Shown here piece after piece: positions 1 through 9,110 of a stretch of DNA of 9,110 nt. How positions within the stretch are numbered: position 1 is the stretch's first letter; each line of letters starts with the position of its first letter. The translations under genes were made by a program, and so were the position numbers. Source of the DNA: a virus (taxonomy: Duplodnaviria > Heunggongvirae > Uroviricota > Caudoviricetes); IMG/VR virus record IMGVR_UViG_2537562017_000014; one strand, given 5' to 3'. A model generated the notes under the pieces. The model searched no databases. It saw nothing but the letters and a program-made list of their open reading frames with translations, and was not told the DNA's origin.

Positions 1-562
1 TCAACTCGCTGAATTCTTTTCTCATTTGGGAAAGTAACTGCCGACGTACTGATTCAATTTCTGCTGTTTGAGCTCTCAAATATCTTGAGAAATCAAGTAG
101 TTCATCAGCTGTTTTGTTTTGGCTATTTATAAACGTAACAGGTTGCCCTGGCTTAGATATGAGAAAGAATTGATCAATTTTATCAAGTAATGGTGGAATT
201 ATTTGTTTCCATTCAGCCCATTCTTTTTCACGATGAAACTCCAGGCTGTGCTGACATGCTCTGAGTTGCTGTATATCAATCGCCCAGACCTCACTCTCAT
301 CGAGGCAATCTTTCCATTTGCTAATTACATTAATGTCAAATTTTTTGTTCGGTCGATAATCTTCTTTGGCGCGCGCTTCCAGTATAGAGGCAAGGCTACC
401 TGTATATTGCATCAAATTGGTAGATGCTCGGTTTACTAGCTCAGATATTCGATCTAGTTGAGTTGTTCTAATCTCAAGTGCTTTCTTTTTACGTTCATTT
501 CGTAAAGCAAAATATGCAGCAAGGCAGACTGCAGCAACTGTGGCTGCTGGTTGCATATTCAT
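1..562 (-). CDS. Hypothetical protein with N-terminal hydrophobic anchor; partial, 3' end runs off the left edge; AT-rich accessory (cargo) gene downstream of gpD
   Basis: Minus-strand frame is open from the ATG (complement of 560-562) to position 2; I checked every in-frame triplet by hand and found no stop. AGAGGA Shine-Dalgarno lies 8 nt upstream of that ATG. Translation starts MNMQPAATVAAVCLAAYFALRNERKKK, a 16-residue hydrophobic stretch followed by a basic cluster. Absent from the supplied ORF track, apparently because it has no stop inside the window. An alternative in-frame ATG at 584-586 lacks an SD. No family recognised. Confidence 0.6.
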   Translation of the reverse strand, partial: MNMQPAATVAAVCLAAYFALRNERKKKALEIRTTQLDRISELVNRASTNLMQYTGSLASILEARAKEDYRPNKKFDINVISKWKDCLDESEVWAIDIQQLRACQHSLEFHREKEWAEWKQIIPPLLDKIDQFFLISKPGQPVTFINSQNKTADELLDFSRYLRAQTAEIESVRRQLLSQMRKEFSEL

Positions 563-624
563 AACATGGATCCTCTGACATGGCATTTATGGGCGCTATT
601 TCAGCAGTAATCATTTGTGTGTAA

Positions 625-643
625 ATTTGTTTGCTACAAATTA
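625..643. promoter_or_regulatory. Candidate operator: perfect 7-bp inverted repeat AATTTGT-N5-ACAAATT, with a further direct ATTTGT copy at 613-618, in the 5' leader of the cargo ORF
   Basis: Read directly: 625-631 aatttgt, 632-636 ttgct, 637-643 acaaatt. Lies 60-80 bp upstream of the minus-strand ORF start at 562. A minus-strand -10-like hexamer TAGAAT (complement of 648-653) is adjacent, but the -35 is weak. Confidence 0.25.
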
Positions 644-756
644 ACATATTCTAATGTAAGGTACTTCTGATTTTGACACTTGGTAGGCTGTCAGATTGGT
701 TATGATTCTTGCTGTAGGCGCGTTAACAAATGTCAGGGCTAATGCATCTAAGTTGT

Positions 757-1857
757 TTACTCTGTTTCTGCTATCCATTCCGGGATTTTTGCTTCAAGCT
801 CAAGCTGAGTGGTAAAGCCGCTGTTGTCAATGGTGTGCTCGGCTTTTGCAATAATCCAGTCCTGATTGTCAATGTCACTTTTGAAGCCTGTCACCGTGCC
901 ATGCATTTCGGGATAGAGTTCTGCACGTCCACACGCCAGCGTGATGGAGAACGCTGCGGCTCCGCGTTGTAGCTGCTGCCACTTTGCCGCCGCTGCACGT
1001 CTTGCTGCCTGCTCGTTCTGATAAGTCTTGCGTAACACAAACACGTTGCCTTCCGCGCCTTCCATATAGTCGCCTTCCCGGCTGCTGCTTTTCTCCTTTT
1101 TCGGTTTGCGGCGTTTCACGTTGACTTTTTTCTTTTTCCCGTAATTAAGATCAAGCCAGTAGGCGCGTACACCCGTATACGCCTCGCGGTCAGCAATGCG
1201 AAACTGATGGCGATCGCCGCTGCTGCGTGTGATGGCAAACGATGGCAATGGTTTTCCCTGTGCGTTCACGCCACCGCCTGGCATGATGAATAACAGATTA
1301 CCGCTTTTTACCGTGGTGATTGCGCCCAGCATTTCCGCCATGCGCGTAAGGAAGGACATGTCGCTTTCTTCGGTCTGGTCGGCGTGGTCGATTTCGATAT
1401 CCATCAGCATTTCGCTGATTTGCGGTTTCAGGCCGTACCGGTGAGCGATAGCAGATACCACGCGCTCAACGGTCACATCATGCCAGGACACTTCACGTTT
1501 AACGTTAAATTCATCCCGAAAATCTGCGCTTCTGGCTGAAACAGTCAGCCTGTCCGGCGGACCTTCGTGAGCGATTTCATCAACAATGTAAGTGCCTTTT
1601 TCTGTCAGCGGTTCTCCTTTCCAGCCAATGAGAACCGTCAGGCGCGCGCCCCGTGGCGGTAGCTGCAACTGACCATCCGCATCATCCAGCGTGATGGTGA
1701 GCTGGTCCGCCTCAAATCCCCGGTTGTCGGTCAGTGACAGGCTCATCAGGCGCTCGGCCACGCCTGACAGCGTTTTACCCTCCGCGAGAATATCAAAATC
1801 CGGCATTTTCACGGGGTCTGTGCCCTGACTGAGCAATTGCATGGTGGTATCGGTCAT
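757..1857 (-). CDS. P2 gpD-like tail protein (late control gene D family)
   Basis: Translation carries the gpD-type organisation: LMSLSLTDNRGFEADQL, SWHD, a Lys/Arg-rich linker KKKKVNVKRRKPKKEK, EGDY...NVFVLRKTY and WQQLQRG...FSITLACGR. Start chosen at the ATG on the complement of 1855-1857 (MTDTTMQLL) because a GGGAGGG Shine-Dalgarno sits 5 nt upstream. The track's longer ORF to 1989 has no comparable signal. Stop is TAA on the complement of 757-759. Confidence 0.85.
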   Translation of the reverse strand: MTDTTMQLLSQGTDPVKMPDFDILAEGKTLSGVAERLMSLSLTDNRGFEADQLTITLDDADGQLQLPPRGARLTVLIGWKGEPLTEKGTYIVDEIAHEGPPDRLTVSARSADFRDEFNVKREVSWHDVTVERVVSAIAHRYGLKPQISEMLMDIEIDHADQTEESDMSFLTRMAEMLGAITTVKSGNLLFIMPGGGVNAQGKPLPSFAITRSSGDRHQFRIADREAYTGVRAYWLDLNYGKKKKVNVKRRKPKKEKSSSREGDYMEGAEGNVFVLRKTYQNEQAARRAAAAKWQQLQRGAAAFSITLACGRAELYPEMHGTVTGFKSDIDNQDWIIAKAEHTIDNSGFTTQLELEAKIPEWIAETE

Positions 1858-2014
1858 CTGTTCCCTCCCTGTGCGGCATGGTCGCATGTGCGTGCGGAGG
1901 GGGTTACTGCTTTTTGTTGTCGCCGTGGCGGGAGAACGGCGCAGGGGTGAGATTACGCGCGTGGTGGGTGATGATTGTTGCCGAATCATTTAACGGATAC
2001 AAGGGGCTGAAGCT

Positions 2015-3193
2015 ATGAGTGAAACTCGTTTTCATGGTGCCCGTGTTACGGAAAATACCGACCTGGTAACAGCGATTAAGATGTTGATTCCAGGTTATCG
2101 GTATCGTGGCAACGGCGGATGATGCGGAGCGAGCTGTTCCCGCTGAACAAGCCCACACTGCTGACCCGCGTCAATGACGTGCTGGGAAAATGCGGACAAC
2201 GGGACGCTTTATCGTGCGCTTAAGGCCATCGCAGACCAGGTGAGCACAAAGGTGATCGTCGTTCGCGTGGCTGAACACAAAGAAGAAGACGGAAAGACGC
2301 AGGATCAACTGGTTATCGGTGGTTCTGAGGATGACGGCAGCTATACGGGGATGTATGCGCTGCTTGTTGCAGAGCAGGATGAAAGCATCGGATACCGTCC
2401 GCGTATTCTGGCCGCGCCGGAGCTGGACACGGAGGCGGTAACAAAATCCCTGTGCGTGATTGCGGGTAAACTGCGCGCGTTTGTGTATGCCTCATGTCAC
2501 GGCTGTAACACGATGGCTGAGGCGATTACCTACCGCCAGAAATTCAACGAACGTGAGGTGATGCTCTTATGGCCGGACTTCATCGCCTACAACCCGAAAA
2601 GTGGCAAAAACGAAACGTTCCCCGCGCCTGCCTATGCGTGCGGCCTTCGTGCGTACATTGACCATGAGCAGGGCTGGCACAAATCGCTGTCCAACGTTCC
2701 GGTTAAAAATGTGCTGGGGATGTCCAGGCATGTGTTCTGGTCGTTGCAGGCCGAAGACAGTGATGCCAACAGCCTCAACAACAAAGAAATCACGACCATT
2801 ATTCGTCGCAATGGGTTCCGCTTCTGGGGCAACCGCACACCGGAAACGAACGCCTACATCTTTGAGGTGTATACCCGAACCGCACAGGTGCTGGCTGATT
2901 CAATTGCGGAAGCGCAGTTTGAAACCATCGACAGTCCACTGACGCCTGCGAACGTGAAAGATGTTATCAGTGCCATCAGGGCAAAACTGGATTCACTGGT
3001 TACTGCCGGGAAACTGATTGGGGCGTCGTGCTGGTATGACGTGGTGGATAACGGCACCACGAATTTACGTCAGGGGCGCGTGCGTATTCGCTACAAATAT
3101 ACGCCTGTTCCCCCGCTGGAAGACATGGAGCTTTACCAGTCGTTTACTGATGAATTCTTTGGTCCCGCATTTGCGGTGCTGGGAGGTGCCTGA
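2015..3193 (+). pseudogene. P2 FI-like contractile tail sheath; 5' ~180 nt disrupted by three frame changes, reading frame intact from about 2192 to the stop
   Basis: ATG at 2015 with AAGGGG SD 8 nt upstream gives MSETRFHGARVTE, then a stop at 2120-2122. Sheath-like N-terminal motifs continue in other frames: VIGIVATADDAE (frame of 2094-2129), FPLNKPTLLT (from 2137), then GTLYRALKAIADQ in the long ORF 2174-3193. The long ORF has clear sheath motifs (WPDFIAYN, IRRNGFRFWGNRT, YKYTPVPPLED). Stop TGA at 3191-3193 overlaps the FII start. Confidence 0.75.
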
Positions 3194-3705
3194 TGGCTGT
3201 ACCAAAACATCTTCGCTTTTTTACGCTGTTTGTGGATGGTGAAAACGAAGTGGGTAAGGTGACGTCCGTCACTCTGCCTAAGCTGACGCGCAAAACCGAC
3301 AGCTACCGGGGTGGTGGCATGATGGGTGCGGTAAGTATTGATCTCGGTCTGGACGACTCCGCGCTTGATGCGAGCTTTGTCATGGGGGGCGCAGTTCGTG
3401 AGCTGTTCCTTAAGTATGGCGGCACGATTGACGGCACGCTGCTGCGTTTTGCGGGTGAATACTACACCGATGCAGAAAGCGACCTGTATGAAGTCGAAAT
3501 GCGCGGACGTGTGACGGAAATTGATATGGGGGAAGCCAAACAGGGCGAAGCCACATCACACACTTACGCCATTAAAAACACCTACTACAAGCTGAGTGTT
3601 AACGATCGCCCGTTGTGGGAGATTGACCTGCTGAACTTCATTTACCGGAAGGACGGCAAGGACATTGTGCCCGATCGCATCCGTTCCGCGCTTGGGCTTG
3701 GCTGA
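3193..3705 (+). CDS. P2 FII-like tail tube protein
   Basis: 170-aa ORF. ATG overlaps the FI stop (TGATG), suggesting translational coupling; GGGAGG SD 6 nt upstream. Translation MAVPKHLRFFTLFVDGEN...TLPKLTRKTDSYRGGGM matches the remembered P2 tube N-terminus pattern (PKLTRKTxxYRGGGM). Confidence 0.9.
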   Translation: MAVPKHLRFFTLFVDGENEVGKVTSVTLPKLTRKTDSYRGGGMMGAVSIDLGLDDSALDASFVMGGAVRELFLKYGGTIDGTLLRFAGEYYTDAESDLYEVEMRGRVTEIDMGEAKQGEATSHTYAIKNTYYKLSVNDRPLWEIDLLNFIYRKDGKDIVPDRIRSALGLG

Positions 3706-3759
3706 TAAGTAATATGCAGGCGGCGCAGTGCGTCGCCTCTGACTGAAAGGAGTTTCCTG

Positions 3760-4125
3760 ATGAAAGAGACGAAAAACATCGATACCGAAAACACGGTAGT
3801 TACTGACACTGTGAAAGAAACCAGTGAGCGTGGCGTAAAACTTACCCAACCAATTGAGCGAGGCGGCGAAAAAATCACGTATGTGGAGATCACCGGGGCT
3901 ATTGAGCAGGCTGGATCTCTGCGAGATTTGTCGCTGTCTGATGTGCTGAATCTGAAAGCGGAATCCATGTTTACGCTGCTGTCACGCGTGACATCACCGC
4001 GACTGGATGAAGTGACGATCAAAAAAATGGCATCCCGTGACTTTATTCAGTTATGTGTGGTTGCCGTAAATTTTTTGAGCGGTGCGGACTCTGGCGGGAA
4101 GAACGAACAGGCGACGGAAGCCTGA
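3760..4125 (+). CDS. gpE-like tail assembly chaperone (zero-frame product)
   Basis: ATG at 3760 with AAGGAG SD (3747-3752) 7 nt upstream. Sits between tube and tape measure as in P2/lambda G-GT. Contains the slippery heptamer near its 3' end. Confidence 0.8.
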   Translation: MKETKNIDTENTVVTDTVKETSERGVKLTQPIERGGEKITYVEITGAIEQAGSLRDLSLSDVLNLKAESMFTLLSRVTSPRLDEVTIKKMASRDFIQLCVVAVNFLSGADSGGKNEQATEA

Positions 4126-4289
4126 TCACGGTTGTGTGCTTTGAGCACATAGAAGACTTTGTGGCGGATATTGCCGCCATTTTTAACTGGTCGCCCGCCG
4201 AAATCTTCATGATGACGCCCGGCGAAGTGGTTAGCTGGCGTGAGCGGGCGGCACTTCGCAGCGGGAATGCAGACAATGAAGACTCTTGA
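3760..4289 (+). CDS. gpE+E' fusion chaperone produced by programmed -1 frameshift (3760-4077 joined to 4077-4289)
   Basis: Slippery heptamer T TTT TTG at 4071-4077 is positioned X.XXY.YYZ in the E frame (codons AAT TTT TTG). The -1 frame is open from there to TGA at 4287-4289 and encodes FEHIEDFVADIAAIFNWSPAEIFMMTPGEVVSWRERAALRSGNA (track ORF 4053-4289), the conserved E' extension. Confidence 0.65.
4071..4077 (+). other. Programmed -1 ribosomal frameshift slippery site (TTTTTTG) of the E/E' chaperone pair
   Basis: Heptamer read directly from the sequence and in the correct register with the upstream ORF; the -1 frame downstream is open and conserved-looking. Confidence 0.7.
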
Positions 4290-7082
4290 TATCCGGGTCG
4301 CTTTCAGCGCCGTTGACAGGCTGACCCGGCCTGCCGAAAACGCCCGCCGCCTGATGGGGCAGTTTGGTGACTCCATCCAGCGAACGCAGGGGGCGATCAA
4401 AAATCTCGAGCGTCAGGCGCGATCATTTGAGCGCGCCCGTGACGCTGTCAGTAAAGCGGATGCGGGCATCGTGAAAGCACGACGCCAGCTTAACGCCCTT
4501 AATCAGTTACAACGCACGGGTACAGTGCTCAGCGAAAAACAACAAAAGCTGATGCAGCAGTTAAGCACCCGGCTTGAACGCCTGAATGAATCGCGCACAC
4601 GGGAAATTCAGAAAATGCGGGAACTTGGCGGAGAACTGAAACGCCACGGCATTTCCCTGACAGGCAGCGATAACACCATCCAGCAGGCCATCAGACGCAC
4701 CGAACAGTACAACAACCAGCTTGAACGCGAACGGCAGGCGCTTGCGCGTGTAACGCGGGCGCGTGAGCGGTATTCGCGCGCGCAGGAAACCGCGGGAAAA
4801 CTGAAAACAGGTGGTGCGCTGGCAATTGGTGCGGCAGCGGCTGGCGGCTATGCTGCCGGGCGTTTTTTGCAGCCTGCGATCGGGTTCGGCAAAGAGATGT
4901 CCCGCGTTCAGGCACTGACGAGAATCGACAAAAACAGCCCGCAGTTTAAGGCGCTGCGTGAGCAGGCGTTAAAACTTGGCTCTGAAACACAGTTTACTGC
5001 GAGTGATGCCGCCAGTGGGCAGAGCTTTCTGGCAATGGCTGGTTTTACTCCGCAGGCCATTCAGGCCGCATTGCCCGGTGTTCTTAATATGGCGCTGGCA
5101 GGTGGCGTCGAACTCGGCGAGACGGCTGATATAGGCTCCAATATCCTCACACAGTTCAATCTGACAGCCGATCAAATGGACCGGGTTGGCGATACGCTGA
5201 CAGCGGCATTCACCCGGACCAATACTGATTTACGCGCGCTGGGCGAAACCATGAAGTATACCGGTCCGGTTGCCGCAAAACTTGGTATCAGTCTTGAAGA
5301 AGCGACGGCCATGGCCGGGATGCTTGCCAATAATGGTCTTCGCGGAAGCGATGCTGGTACGGCCATGCGCGCAAGTCTGTCCCGCCTAGCATCACCGCCA
5401 AAAGCTGCGGCTGATGCGCTGAAAGAGCTGGGGGTGTCAGTTGCTGACGCCAGAGGCAAAATGCGCCCGATGGAGGATGTGCTGCTTGATCTCTATAAGG
5501 CGACACAAAAATACGGACAGGTGGACCAGGTTTCCTTCTTCAAGGACATCGCCGGAGAAGAGGCGTTCGTTGGTTTGCAGACGCTTGTTGCGGCGGCTGG
5601 TTCAGGAGAGCTGCAAAAACTGACCAGAGAATTGCAGGGGGCAAGGGGAGAGGCCGATCGCGTCGCAAAAGTAATGGCCGATAATCTTGATGGGGACCTG
5701 AAAAATCTCGACAGCGCATGGGAAGGTCTTCGTATTCGCATCAGTGATCTGGTTGACGGTCCGCTGCGTTCTGTCACCAGTGGCTCACGCGGGTGCTTGA
5801 AAAAATCACCTCGCTGGCGCAGGCCCATCCGGTACTGACACGCCAGCTACTGATAGCAGGCGGTGCGTTGCTGGCAATGACTGCAACGATTGGCTCGTTG
5901 TCGCTGGTTATTGGGGTGCTTTACGGAAAGCTGGCCACCCTGCGTCTTGGTTTTGACATTCTTACCCGGTCAATGAATGTCGTCAGGGTGTTGCCTGCGC
6001 TGTGGGGAATGCTGACGGGTTCCGTTTCTTTGCTGGGAGGCGCTATCGGAGCGCTGTTCAGTCCGGTTGGTCTTATCGTGGCTGCGCTTGCCGGAGCTGC
6101 CGTTCTTATCTGGAAATACTGGGATCCCATCAGGGCATTTTTTGCCGGGGTGTTCAGCGGGATTATGGAAAGGCTGACCCCGTTGCGCGAAACCTTTGAA
6201 CGGTTTGGTCCTGTTTTTGACGCAATCGGAAGCGGGATCAGCCAGGTGTTTAACTGGTTTAAATCGCTGTTGTCACCGATGGAGTCCAGCAAGGAAACGC
6301 TGGATAAATGTACCAGTGCTGGCGAGATATTCGGTAACGTTCTTGGTGGTGCGTTACAACTTGTTCTGACACCTGCAAAAATGCTACTGGATACGCTGGC
6401 GTGGATACTTGAAAAACTTGGCGTCCTTCCGGATGAAGCGGAAAGGGCGCGCAAGAAAATCGAAGACGCACAGCGTGCGGCCATTCTTCAGGACAAGGTT
6501 GCCTTACTTCAGGGGGACCTGGCGAAAATCAATCCGCCGAAGCCTGTGGAAAATGGCAATGGCACCGGAGGTGATAAACCCAAAGACAACAAACCGCTCA
6601 CAGACAGCAATACCGGGACGCTACGCAGACTCAGCAAAATTGCTGATAACACAGGTAAGCTGGTTGATGAGACGAAAAAACGCATTGGCCCCGGCGATAT
6701 TGTCTTTAAGAACCTGCCCCGCGCACTTGCTGTTCGTGGGGAGTGGCAGGAGCGGAAGATTGCGCAGGTCAGTAAGCCTGCCCCCGCAATTAATATCACC
6801 CCCGTGGTCCCGGCTCCGCTGCCTCCGGCGCTGGTCCCTGTTGTTGCGGCCAGCTCCCGCCCGGTGGCGGAGGCCATACGATCTCCAGTGGCATCAGTTC
6901 CTGTAACTTCCCGTAACCGGGAGCCTGTTGCCTCCGGATTTGGTGGTGAAATTCATGTTCATCTGCATAACGTTGTTACGCAGAATCCCCGCGAACTGGC
7001 GAAACTGGTCGGTGAAATGGTCAGGGCAGAAATGGAACGGCGCGCTCGTGCCGGGCGTGGCAGTTTTTACGATAAAGATTGA
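4267..7082 (+). pseudogene. gpT-like tail tape measure protein, split into two overlapping ORFs by a frame change near 5757-5800
   Basis: Track ORFs 4240-5838 and 5793-7082 are in different frames and overlap by 45 nt. The first is coiled-coil/Ala-rich and the second has hydrophobic glycine-rich helices, both typical of tape measure proteins. The second frame opens only at 5757 and its apparent start is GTG. First in-frame ATG after the E' overlap is 4267 (alternative 4276). Confidence 0.7.
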
Positions 7083-7094
7083 GGAGTCATGGCC

Positions 7095-7583
7095 ATGATG
7101 ATGATCTACGGCATGTTTGTTTTTGAGCTGCGCACGTTGCCGCATCAGCAGTTACAGCAAAACAAAAGCTGGCGGCATGTGAAAAATGAACGCGTTAACC
7201 GTTCAGCAAGCTGGCAGTATATCGGTGCAGGTGATGATCGCATCGTTCTTTCTGGTGTGCTTTATCCTGAAATTACAGGTGGCGAAGTGTCGCTGTCGCT
7301 GCTGACCACGCAGGCGTATACAGGACGCCCCTGGCCTCTGATTGATAGTGTCGGGCAGATTTACGGCATGTATGTGCTGACTGAAACGAATACGACCCGT
7401 TCCGAGTTTGATCGCTACGGTAAGGCGAAAAAGATAGAATTTTCACTGACCCTTGAACGCTGTGATGAGGATTTGCGGGAGCGCCTGCAATCCTCATCAT
7501 TCAGCGATATGCTGTCCGGCTTCAAAGATAAGGTGACATCATCTCTTAACAGCGCGGCCAGTTCAGTTAAAGGGCTGTTCTGA
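7095..7583 (+). CDS. P2 gpU-like tail protein
   Basis: GAGGAG SD at 7081-7086 is 8 nt before the ATG at 7095 (MMMIYGMFVFEL); the ATG at 7089 is only 2 nt from the SD. Position directly after T. Stop TGA at 7581-7583. Confidence 0.85.
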   Translation: MMMIYGMFVFELRTLPHQQLQQNKSWRHVKNERVNRSASWQYIGAGDDRIVLSGVLYPEITGGEVSLSLLTTQAYTGRPWPLIDSVGQIYGMYVLTETNTTRSEFDRYGKAKKIEFSLTLERCDEDLRERLQSSSFSDMLSGFKDKVTSSLNSAASSVKGLF

Positions 7584-7594
7584 TTTAACACAAA

Positions 7595-7630
7595 AACCGC
7601 TAATGGCCAGATTAGCGGTTATTTTGTTTT
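7595..7630. terminator. Bidirectional rho-independent terminator shared by convergent gpU and invertase genes
   Basis: Perfect 10-bp stem AACCGCTAAT (7595-7604) / ATTAGCGGTT (7611-7620) with 6-nt loop GGCCAG. Followed on the plus strand by ATTTTGTTTT and on the minus strand by TTTTTGTGTT. Confidence 0.6.
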
Positions 7631-8206
7631 CTGACTCTTCTCTATTGTTCCGCTTGATTCTCCTGCGGGGTGGTAACGATAAATCGTCGATGTACCAATG
7701 CCGTAAATTATTGCCAGTTGTTTTCTGTCGTGACCGTTTTTAATCAGCCTTGCTATTTGCTCATGCTGTTCTTTTGTCAGCTTCGGTCGACGTCCGCCTG
7801 TGCGCCCCCGTGCGCGCGCTGCCGCCAGTCCGGCCAGTGTACGTTCAACAATTAATTCACGTTCCATTTCAGCCAGGGCACCCATCACGTGGAAGAAAAA
7901 ACGCCCCATTGGAGAAGATGTATCTATGCTGTCGGTCAGACTGCGAAAATTAATCCCTCGCTCCCGTAGTTCCCCGACGAGAGAAATCAGATGTTTCATG
8001 CTTCGCCCGAGGCGATCCAGTTTCCAGACAACCAGCGTGTCACCTTTTTGAAGACGCTTTAAAGCGCGTTTTAATCCCGGTCGGTCTGTCTTTGTCCCGC
8101 TTAATTTATCTTCAAATATTTGTTCACATCCTGCACAAACAAGAGCGTTTCGTTGCAGGTCTGTATTCTGGTCATTTGTTGATACCCTTACATAGCCAAT
8201 CAGCAC
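7619..8206 (-). CDS. Serine DNA invertase (Gin/Pin/Hin/Cin family resolvase-invertase)
   Basis: Translation LIGYVRVSTNDQNTDLQRNAL...DTLVVWKLDRLGRSMKHLI...FFFHVMGALAEMERELI has the catalytic Ser motif (VRVSTNDQ) and a C-terminal HTH (GTSTIYRY), as in Gin/Pin. The track start at 8224 is a TTG; I prefer the GTG on the complement of 8204-8206, with GGGAGA SD 6 nt upstream, which gives the family's usual MLIGYVRVS N-terminus. Confidence 0.9.
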   Translation of the reverse strand: MLIGYVRVSTNDQNTDLQRNALVCAGCEQIFEDKLSGTKTDRPGLKRALKRLQKGDTLVVWKLDRLGRSMKHLISLVGELRERGINFRSLTDSIDTSSPMGRFFFHVMGALAEMERELIVERTLAGLAAARARGRTGGRRPKLTKEQHEQIARLIKNGHDRKQLAIIYGIGTSTIYRYHPAGESSGTIEKSQKTK

Positions 8207-8260
8207 GCTGAATCTCCCGTCCAAAAGCGTAAATCATGCCATGCAGGTCAGAAACAGCCA

Positions 8261-8286
8261 TTATCTAAAACCTCGGTTTACAAGAA
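8261..8286. other. Invertase crossover site (gix/pix/hix-like, 26 bp)
   Basis: TTATCTAAAACCTCGGTTTACAAGAA; differs at two positions from the Mu gixL sequence as I remember it (TTATCCAAAACCTCGGTTTACAGGAA). Lies 55 bp upstream of the invertase start and at the 5' end of the fibre cassette reading frame. Confidence 0.8.
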
Positions 8287-9110
8287 ACGGTAAATCAGGC
8301 TTCTGGCGCATTACAGAAAAACCAGAACGGCGCAGATATTCCCGATAAAAAACTATTCCTGCGTAATATCGGCACAACAAATTCAACAACCATGTCTTTT
8401 AGTGGTGGTGCTGGATGGTTCAAACTGGCAACTGTAACAATGCCACAAGCCAGTTCCGTGGTTTACATAAGTCTGATTGGTGGTGCTGGATATAATGTTA
8501 ATCCCCATACGGCAATAATAAAATTATTACCGATACTGGCTGTGGAACTATTCATCTTGCAGGTTGCGTTATTGAGGTTATGGGTAATAAAGGTGCCATG
8601 ACCATCCGTGTAACCACCCCGAGCACTTCCAGCGGTGGCGGAACTACTAATGCACAATTTACTTATATAAACCACGGTGGAGATTATGCGCCAGGCTGGC
8701 GGCGTGACTACAGTACCAAAAATCAGCAGCCTGCATTTGCTTTAGGGCAGACAGGAAGCACTGTTGGAAATGACAAAGCTGTTGGATGGAACTCAAATAG
8801 CGGCGTTTATAATGCGACTATTAGTGGAGCGTCAACATTGATTCTTCACTTTAATATGAATGCGGGGAGTTGCCCGGCGGTTCAGTTCCGTGTGAATTAT
8901 AAGAACGGCGGTATTTATTATCGTTCAGCGCGAGATGGTTATGGATTTGAGGCTGACTGGTCAGAGTTTTATACCACAACACGCAAGCCATCAGCAGGAG
9001 ATGTTGGTGCATATACCAAAGCCGAATCAGATTCTCGCTATGTACGAGATATTCGCCTGGGCACACGTGTTGTTCAGACTATGCAAAAAGGCGTGATGTA
9101 TGAGAAATCA
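8269..9110 (+). CDS. Alternative tail-fibre C-terminal variable cassette (promoterless; partial, continues past right edge); frame change near 8500
   Basis: The frame opens at 8269 inside the crossover site and has no plausible start or SD, as expected for a cassette expressed only after inversion fuses it to a constant fibre N-terminus. Translation NLGLQETVNQ...GADIPDKKLFLRNIG...SGGAGWFKLATVTMPQASSVVYISLIGGAGYNVN, then in another frame from 8502: PYGNNKIITDTG...GWRRDYSTKNQQ...AYTKAESDSRYV, which is fibre-like. A 14-bp codon-aligned direct repeat (8403-8416, 8478-8491) encodes GGAGW/GGAGY. Confidence 0.6.

Follow-up and report, generated by a model that had tools for sequence, protein, structure and literature searches.

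Frameshifts at the start of a prophage tail sheath gene in an E. coli draft contig very probably reflect the collapse of two prophage copies during assembly

The closest described counterparts of the gene considered here are the P2-like tail sheaths (gpFI of P2, and the 394-aa sheath of the P88/Xuanwuvirus type), with which it shares the synteny D (minus strand), sheath, tube, E/E', tape measure and U. The annotated sheath genes of P88, PhiR44_2 and many E. coli prophages show 97.7–99.4% nucleotide identity to it, and the sole difference that sets it apart from the P2-like sheath genes is the lack of six bases. Two other kinds of described system bear on how that lack should be read. Pseudogenes of cryptic or defective prophages have the same look in an annotation, with an ORF that is split, an N-terminal domain that is missing and another tail gene that is broken, but the lesions of real prophage decay are unrelated to SNP sites, are usually accompanied by substitutions and larger deletions, and recur in independent high-quality assemblies, none of which is the case here. 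Consensus errors in collapsed repeats share with the present locus a short, repeat-only contig, errors at inter-copy variant sites and recurrence in sister assemblies; they differ in that a mixed column usually ends as a majority or ambiguous base, whereas here the column was dropped, giving frameshifts. Dense polymorphism among the reads of an assembly is an accepted warning sign of collapsed repeats (PMC2847712).

The window, i.e., the whole stretch of DNA that was analysed (9,110 nt), corresponds from end to end (1–9110) to one stand-alone draft contig, APWY01000074.1 of GCA_000358895.1, and locus L007 is identical to it. It contains a prophage tail module only, with both ends lying inside genes and without chromosomal flank. 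Genes were assigned from ORFs, annotated relatives and Pfam matches (Table 1), and the window is the tail module of an E. coli P88-like prophage (Xuanwuvirus, Peduoviridae, P2 family), with AH20J067 as its overall nearest relative. Being short, confined to prophage sequence and devoid of unique flank, the contig looks like a collapsed two-copy repeat.

Table 1. Genes and single-base deletions of the window, and short gpD annotations in related loci. Positions refer to the window unless a locus is named; CDS numbers refer to the sheath coding sequence.
Feature	Position	Strand	Details
gpD	757–1857	minus	366-aa ORF
Tail sheath gene (P2 FI-like, P88/Xuanwuvirus type)	2015–3193	+	1179 nt
Missing base 1	2079/2080	+	CDS 66; C/T; AAC/AAT, Asn22, synonymous; panel of 132: C 80, T 52
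Missing base 2	2093/2094	+	CDS 81; C/T; AGC/AGT, Ser27, synonymous; panel of 132: C 82, T 50
Missing base 3	2128/2129	+	CDS 117; C/T; GAC/GAT, Asp39, synonymous; panel of 132: C 110, T 22
Missing base 4	2131/2132	+	CDS 121; A/G; AAG Lys / GAG Glu, codon 41; panel of 132: A 84, G 48
Missing base 5	2195/2196	+	CDS 186; G/A; GGG/GGA, Gly62, synonymous; panel of 132: G 70, A 62
Missing base 6	2203/2204	+	CDS 195; G/T; GGG/GGT, Gly65, synonymous; panel of 132: G 131, T 1 (AH20J067)
Tube gene	3193–3705
gpE/E'	3760–4289
Tape-measure gene	4276–7082	+	split ORFs
Seventh window-specific 1-nt deletion	5777/5778	+	tape-measure gene; ORFs 4276–5838 and 5793–7082
gpU	7095–7583
DNA invertase	7619–8206	minus	Resolvase/HTH_7 domains
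Tail-fibre fragment	after invertase		runs off window end
gpD short-CDS annotations	L001 4799–5652; L003 2991–3832; L004 3011–3864; L008 967–1820; L010 209–1062

Sheath identity was judged by Pfam matches above cut-offs (PF04984, PF17482 and PF22671) together with location between gpD and the tube gene. The intact relative of 394 aa matches Gp18_domIII_N, Phage_sheath_1 and Phage_sheath_1C (scores in descending order: 71.6, 45.0 and 36.9 bits), while the 339-aa remnant encoded in the window retains only Phage_sheath_1 and Phage_sheath_1C (72.1 and 38.8 bits in descending order). With these domains, and with its place in a P2-type tail operon, the gene at nt 2015–3193 is a genuine tail sheath gene, although it is six bases shorter than the 1185 nt found in every intact relative. 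The original prediction, made from the sequence of the window, had reported sheath motifs in three frames near the start of this gene, and translation of nt 2015–2300 in three frames bears this out: within nt 2015–2230, MSETRFHGARVTE is read in the frame of the ATG at 2015, VIGIVATADDAE in the +1 frame and FPLNKPTLLT in the +2 frame, while GTLYRALKAIADQ is again in the frame of 2015. The start-frame stops that it had listed at 2120 and 2162 are both present, and a third occurs at 2144 (all TGA). A long ORF restarts at the ATG at 2174 and ends at 3193, encoding 339 aa; the remaining 1 kb of the gene had been described as intact.

Alignment at the nucleotide level to intact sheath genes, which had been proposed as a check, placed each indel and settled most of the question. 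Where three shifts had been predicted, the alignment gives six single-base deletions arranged in three pairs (Table 1), with no substitutions in the stretch relative to the GB089/P88 allele. The last shift had been put at an A4 run, but that run occupies nt 2188–2191 and the final two deletions follow nt 2195 and nt 2203, the placement of the latter being ambiguous within the GGG at 2201–2203. Re-insertion of the six bases gives a gene of 1185 nt with 2/1185 mismatches to the GB089 allele. The net change of −6 leaves the start and the 3' kilobase in one frame with the three stops between them, and this restoration of frame is the one point in favour of programmed recoding, by which several ribosomal frameshifts would produce a full-length sheath. 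Six shifts would be required, across stops in the intervening frames; no slippery heptamer was seen at the shift points, and every relative encodes the same protein in a single open frame. The probability of recoding is practically negligible.

The positions of the missing bases coincide with allelic variation. In an alignment of seven sequences, every column with a gap in the window is one at which the intact alleles disagree, GB089 and P88 carrying C, C, C, A, G and G at the six sites and AH20J067 carrying T, T, T, G, A and T. A larger panel comprised 132 intact sequences from complete genomes, phages and IMG/VR contigs; within CDS 1–216, its SNPs with a minor-allele frequency of at least 0.1 are confined to positions 41, 66, 81, 117, 121 and 186. 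Five deletions lie on these common SNPs, and the sixth (195) is a rare G/T site, the T being found in AH20J067 (1/132). All but one of the deleted sites are synonymous third-codon positions, the exception being a Lys/Glu polymorphism, and synonymous sites without accompanying substitutions are the pattern of standing allelic variation. When all differences between GB089 and AH20J067 are removed from CDS 61–200, the result is exactly the sequence of the window and of a second draft contig (locus L006); when they are removed from CDS 1–280, it is exactly that of a third (locus L005), including a seventh deletion, at site 41, that this contig carries. All six sheath deletions (6/6) are therefore at variant sites, as would be expected of errors at inter-allele positions, and the lesions lack the independence from standing variation that would be expected of a pseudogene. 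The bases that are missing match the inter-allele differences exactly, none being present where one of two alleles is expected.

A choice had originally been offered between a sheath pseudogene and localised indel errors. The lesions are indeed errors in kind, but they are not of the random base-calling or homopolymer type, and the pseudogene found no support (see below). Random errors, in the form of bases missed through homopolymers or compression in a local patch of low coverage or low quality, would fit with the lesions being all deletions, with their clustering within 125 nt, and with the shortening of G runs by two of them (GGG to GG, GGGG to GGG). Three of the six, however, remove a lone C/T base that is not in a homopolymer and a fourth lies at a variant A/G site, and errors that arose independently would not recur identically in three assemblies. 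A rough calculation with the panel of 132 indicates that five of six random positions in ~200 nt would fall on the six common SNP columns with a probability of the order of 1e-7. Random local error is thus a very improbable source of the deletions.

The explanation that very probably applies is that the sheath frameshifts are errors of the deposited draft, introduced by the collapse of two prophage copies into a single contig. The sequenced E. coli would carry two nearly identical copies of the P88-like tail module, and the assembler would have piled the reads from both into a single contig. At a column with an approximately 50/50 mix, each allele may have been aligned against a gap, or may have supplied about half of the signal, so that neither would pass the calling threshold; the column would then be dropped, leaving a 1-nt deletion at each such site. 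The drop could have come about through the setting out of a mismatch as two half-gapped columns or, alternatively, through flow-space averaging that rounded a half signal to zero, and the changes of GGG/GGA to GG+A and of GGGG/GGGT to GGG fit either version. Each mixed column would emerge in the consensus as allele 1, allele 2 or nothing. The six clustered sites at the 5' end of the sheath gene would give the three apparent frame changes, and one more would give a frameshift in the tape-measure gene; the clustering of six differences within 130 nt probably marks a short tract of recombination between the copies. This genome would have a double copy number and an allele mix at the seven sites, and both real sheath genes would be expected to be intact ORFs of 1185 nt. 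The rare site at CDS 195 (1/132) would require that all three drafts share an AH20J067-like copy, which would fit if the drafts are from related isolates. The feature is almost certainly not real biology, and the broken sheath start says nothing about the biology of the phage. The further statement in the original prediction, that the element lacks a sheath and could not make contractile tails, is left without support, as the lesions sit in the deposited sequence and are systematic at inter-copy variant sites.

In an index of 153 billion genes, the truncated 339-aa product occurs on only three contigs, all of them NCBI drafts: APWY01000074 (the window), AQEG01000113 (L005) and AQAO01000033 (L006). 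It belongs to a protein cluster of 5003 members, in which 10 of the 15 members listed are 394 aa in length. Both sister drafts carry the same six sheath deletions as the window, and their chromosomal flanks differ (uvrC/pgsA for L005, raiA/bamD for L006). In L005 there is a seventh sheath gap at site 41 (window 2055), where the window has A and L006 has G, and three polymorphic sites are dropped in gpD. No pair of panel sequences reproduced this gpD stretch of L005 exactly; the dropped sites are polymorphic, but the haplotype of the second copy there is absent from the panel. In L006, eight bases are missing from a 125-nt stretch of gpD, which corresponds exactly to deletion of all eight allele differences between the window and L005, and one polymorphic site is dropped in the tape-measure gene. 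At seven sites dropped in one draft only (1237, 1249, 1279, 1372, 1462, 1470 and 2055), each of the two alternative alleles is found in one of the remaining drafts, while at 1860, 5777 and 5922 the remaining two drafts agree with each other. Errors of this type thus recur at further variant sites and in the sister assemblies, the set of sites differing from one assembly to the next.

A genuine pseudogene would mean a defective prophage with six real 1-nt deletions in the sheath gene and one in the tape-measure gene, and without a contractile tail. The presence of the same six deletions in three assemblies with different chromosomal flanks could resemble an inherited allele, and further ORFs of these contigs are broken, as happens in decaying prophages. 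Mutation, however, has no reason to strike exactly the sites at which alleles differ, five of the six synonymous and with zero substitutions, and the further deleted sites differ among the three contigs, with a gap in one and usually both alleles in the others. The rest of the module, moreover, is 99% identical to intact prophages, and of 1370 complete E. coli genomes with the gene, not one (0/1370) has the deletions, nor does any IMG/VR contig. The best identity in complete genomes, 97.0%, is accounted for by the six gaps alone, the stretch having its full length of 197 nt among the matches listed, against 191 nt in the window. Neither IMG/VR nor the GTDB species representatives contain the 30-mer that covers the first two deletions, while its intact 32-mer equivalent is present in at least 120 IMG/VR contigs. 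The broken form is therefore absent from finished and independent assemblies, and the recurrence in high-quality sequences that a pseudogene should show was not seen. A pseudogene is very improbable on this evidence. Real deletions might also have arisen by gene conversion between two resident prophage copies, through a heteroduplex across the sheath 5' end and aberrant excision of each mismatched base without correction to either allele, so that every SNP would become a 1-nt deletion; this is extremely unlikely but, if true, recombination between diverged repeats would have a mutational signature not described before.

The collapse of two copies presupposes genomes that carry the module twice. 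The stretch is found at 1516 places in the 1370 genomes, with a maximum of three per genome and more than one in a minority of carriers, and in RM8988-C1 (O145), a complete genome, a tail module of this kind is present twice, once at the tRNA-Leu/pgsA/uvrC site. These counts and the RM8988-C1 example make a two-copy genome realistic. Over 7.6 kb the two RM8988-C1 modules share 93.5% identity, with sheath genes that differ at 41, 66, 81 and 117 as well as at other sites. They were considered as the source of the window pattern and rejected: dropping their SNPs fails to reproduce it, as, of the six sites deleted in the window, just 66, 81 and 117 differ between them, in addition to 41. RM8988-C1 serves solely as proof that two-copy genomes exist, and the copies in the genome of the window would have to be much more alike than its modules for an assembler to merge them.

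The tape-measure gene carries the seventh deletion specific to the window (Table 1), and restoring a G after nt 5777 joins its two ORFs into a single one of 935 aa. At this site all 12 full-length references (12/12) have G, as do L005 and L006, while an A allele occurs in one IMG/VR contig (L016). The site lies where, compared with L005 and L006, the window consensus passes from one haplotype to another. Judged from these alleles, the frameshift is probably the same consensus artefact, less firmly shown than the sheath deletions.

The value of these findings is one of caution only. An annotation that trusted the contig as it stands would describe a defective prophage without sheath or tape measure, and the truncated 339-aa 'sheath' is already present in public protein collections. 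Single-base gaps that sit on inter-copy SNPs are a simple, reference-based signature, which could be used to flag false pseudogenes in older draft assemblies, especially those of multi-copy prophages. Split genes are also seen in the sister drafts, where single-base gaps at polymorphic sites interrupt gpD (L005 4589–5686, L006 4583–5684) and the tape-measure gene (L006 8103–10909), and pseudogene counts for these assemblies will be inflated.

Several other features of the module were observed. The left flank (nt 1–760) shows 93.9% identity to the references with 12 gaps, and is too diverged for artefactual indels to be scored. It includes a truncated ORF of 187 aa (nt 1–562, minus strand) that has no Pfam hit; its homologue in TW10590 and JNE120393 is a hypothetical gene of 666 nt located upstream of gpD. 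The left boundary of the module is mosaic, since GB089, SCU-111 and P88 carry other genes, e.g., ogr, in place of this ORF. The adjacent gpD gene is annotated in several complete RefSeq genomes as a short CDS (~265 aa) of the 'VgrG/Pvc8 family' (Table 1) together with an overlapping partial 'hypothetical protein' pseudo-CDS, and in other records the same gene is given as a 369-aa 'late control D' protein, which looks like start-site inconsistency rather than biology. Within the gpE reading frame (nt 3760–4125) there is a T_TTT_TTG heptamer (nt 4071–4077), apparently intact here, and downstream of it a GpE-family (PF06528) ORF in the −1 frame, the E' frame ORF spanning nt 4053–4289. The heptamer matches the known programmed −1 frameshift that yields gpE+E' in P2 tail chaperone genes.

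Between the convergent gpU and invertase genes there is an 18-nt inverted repeat (nt 7587–7628, 89% complementary, 6-nt loop) that is probably a bidirectional terminator. The region from nt 7619 to 9110 holds the DNA invertase followed by C-terminal segments of tail-fibre genes, and the window ends within it. Part of this region (nt 8257–8506; see also L003 13315–13565) matches AH20J067 and SCU-111 in reverse orientation only, and from this the window appears to hold an invertible fibre segment in its alternative orientation. An inverted repeat of 17 nt is found at nt 8456–8472 and 8661–8677.
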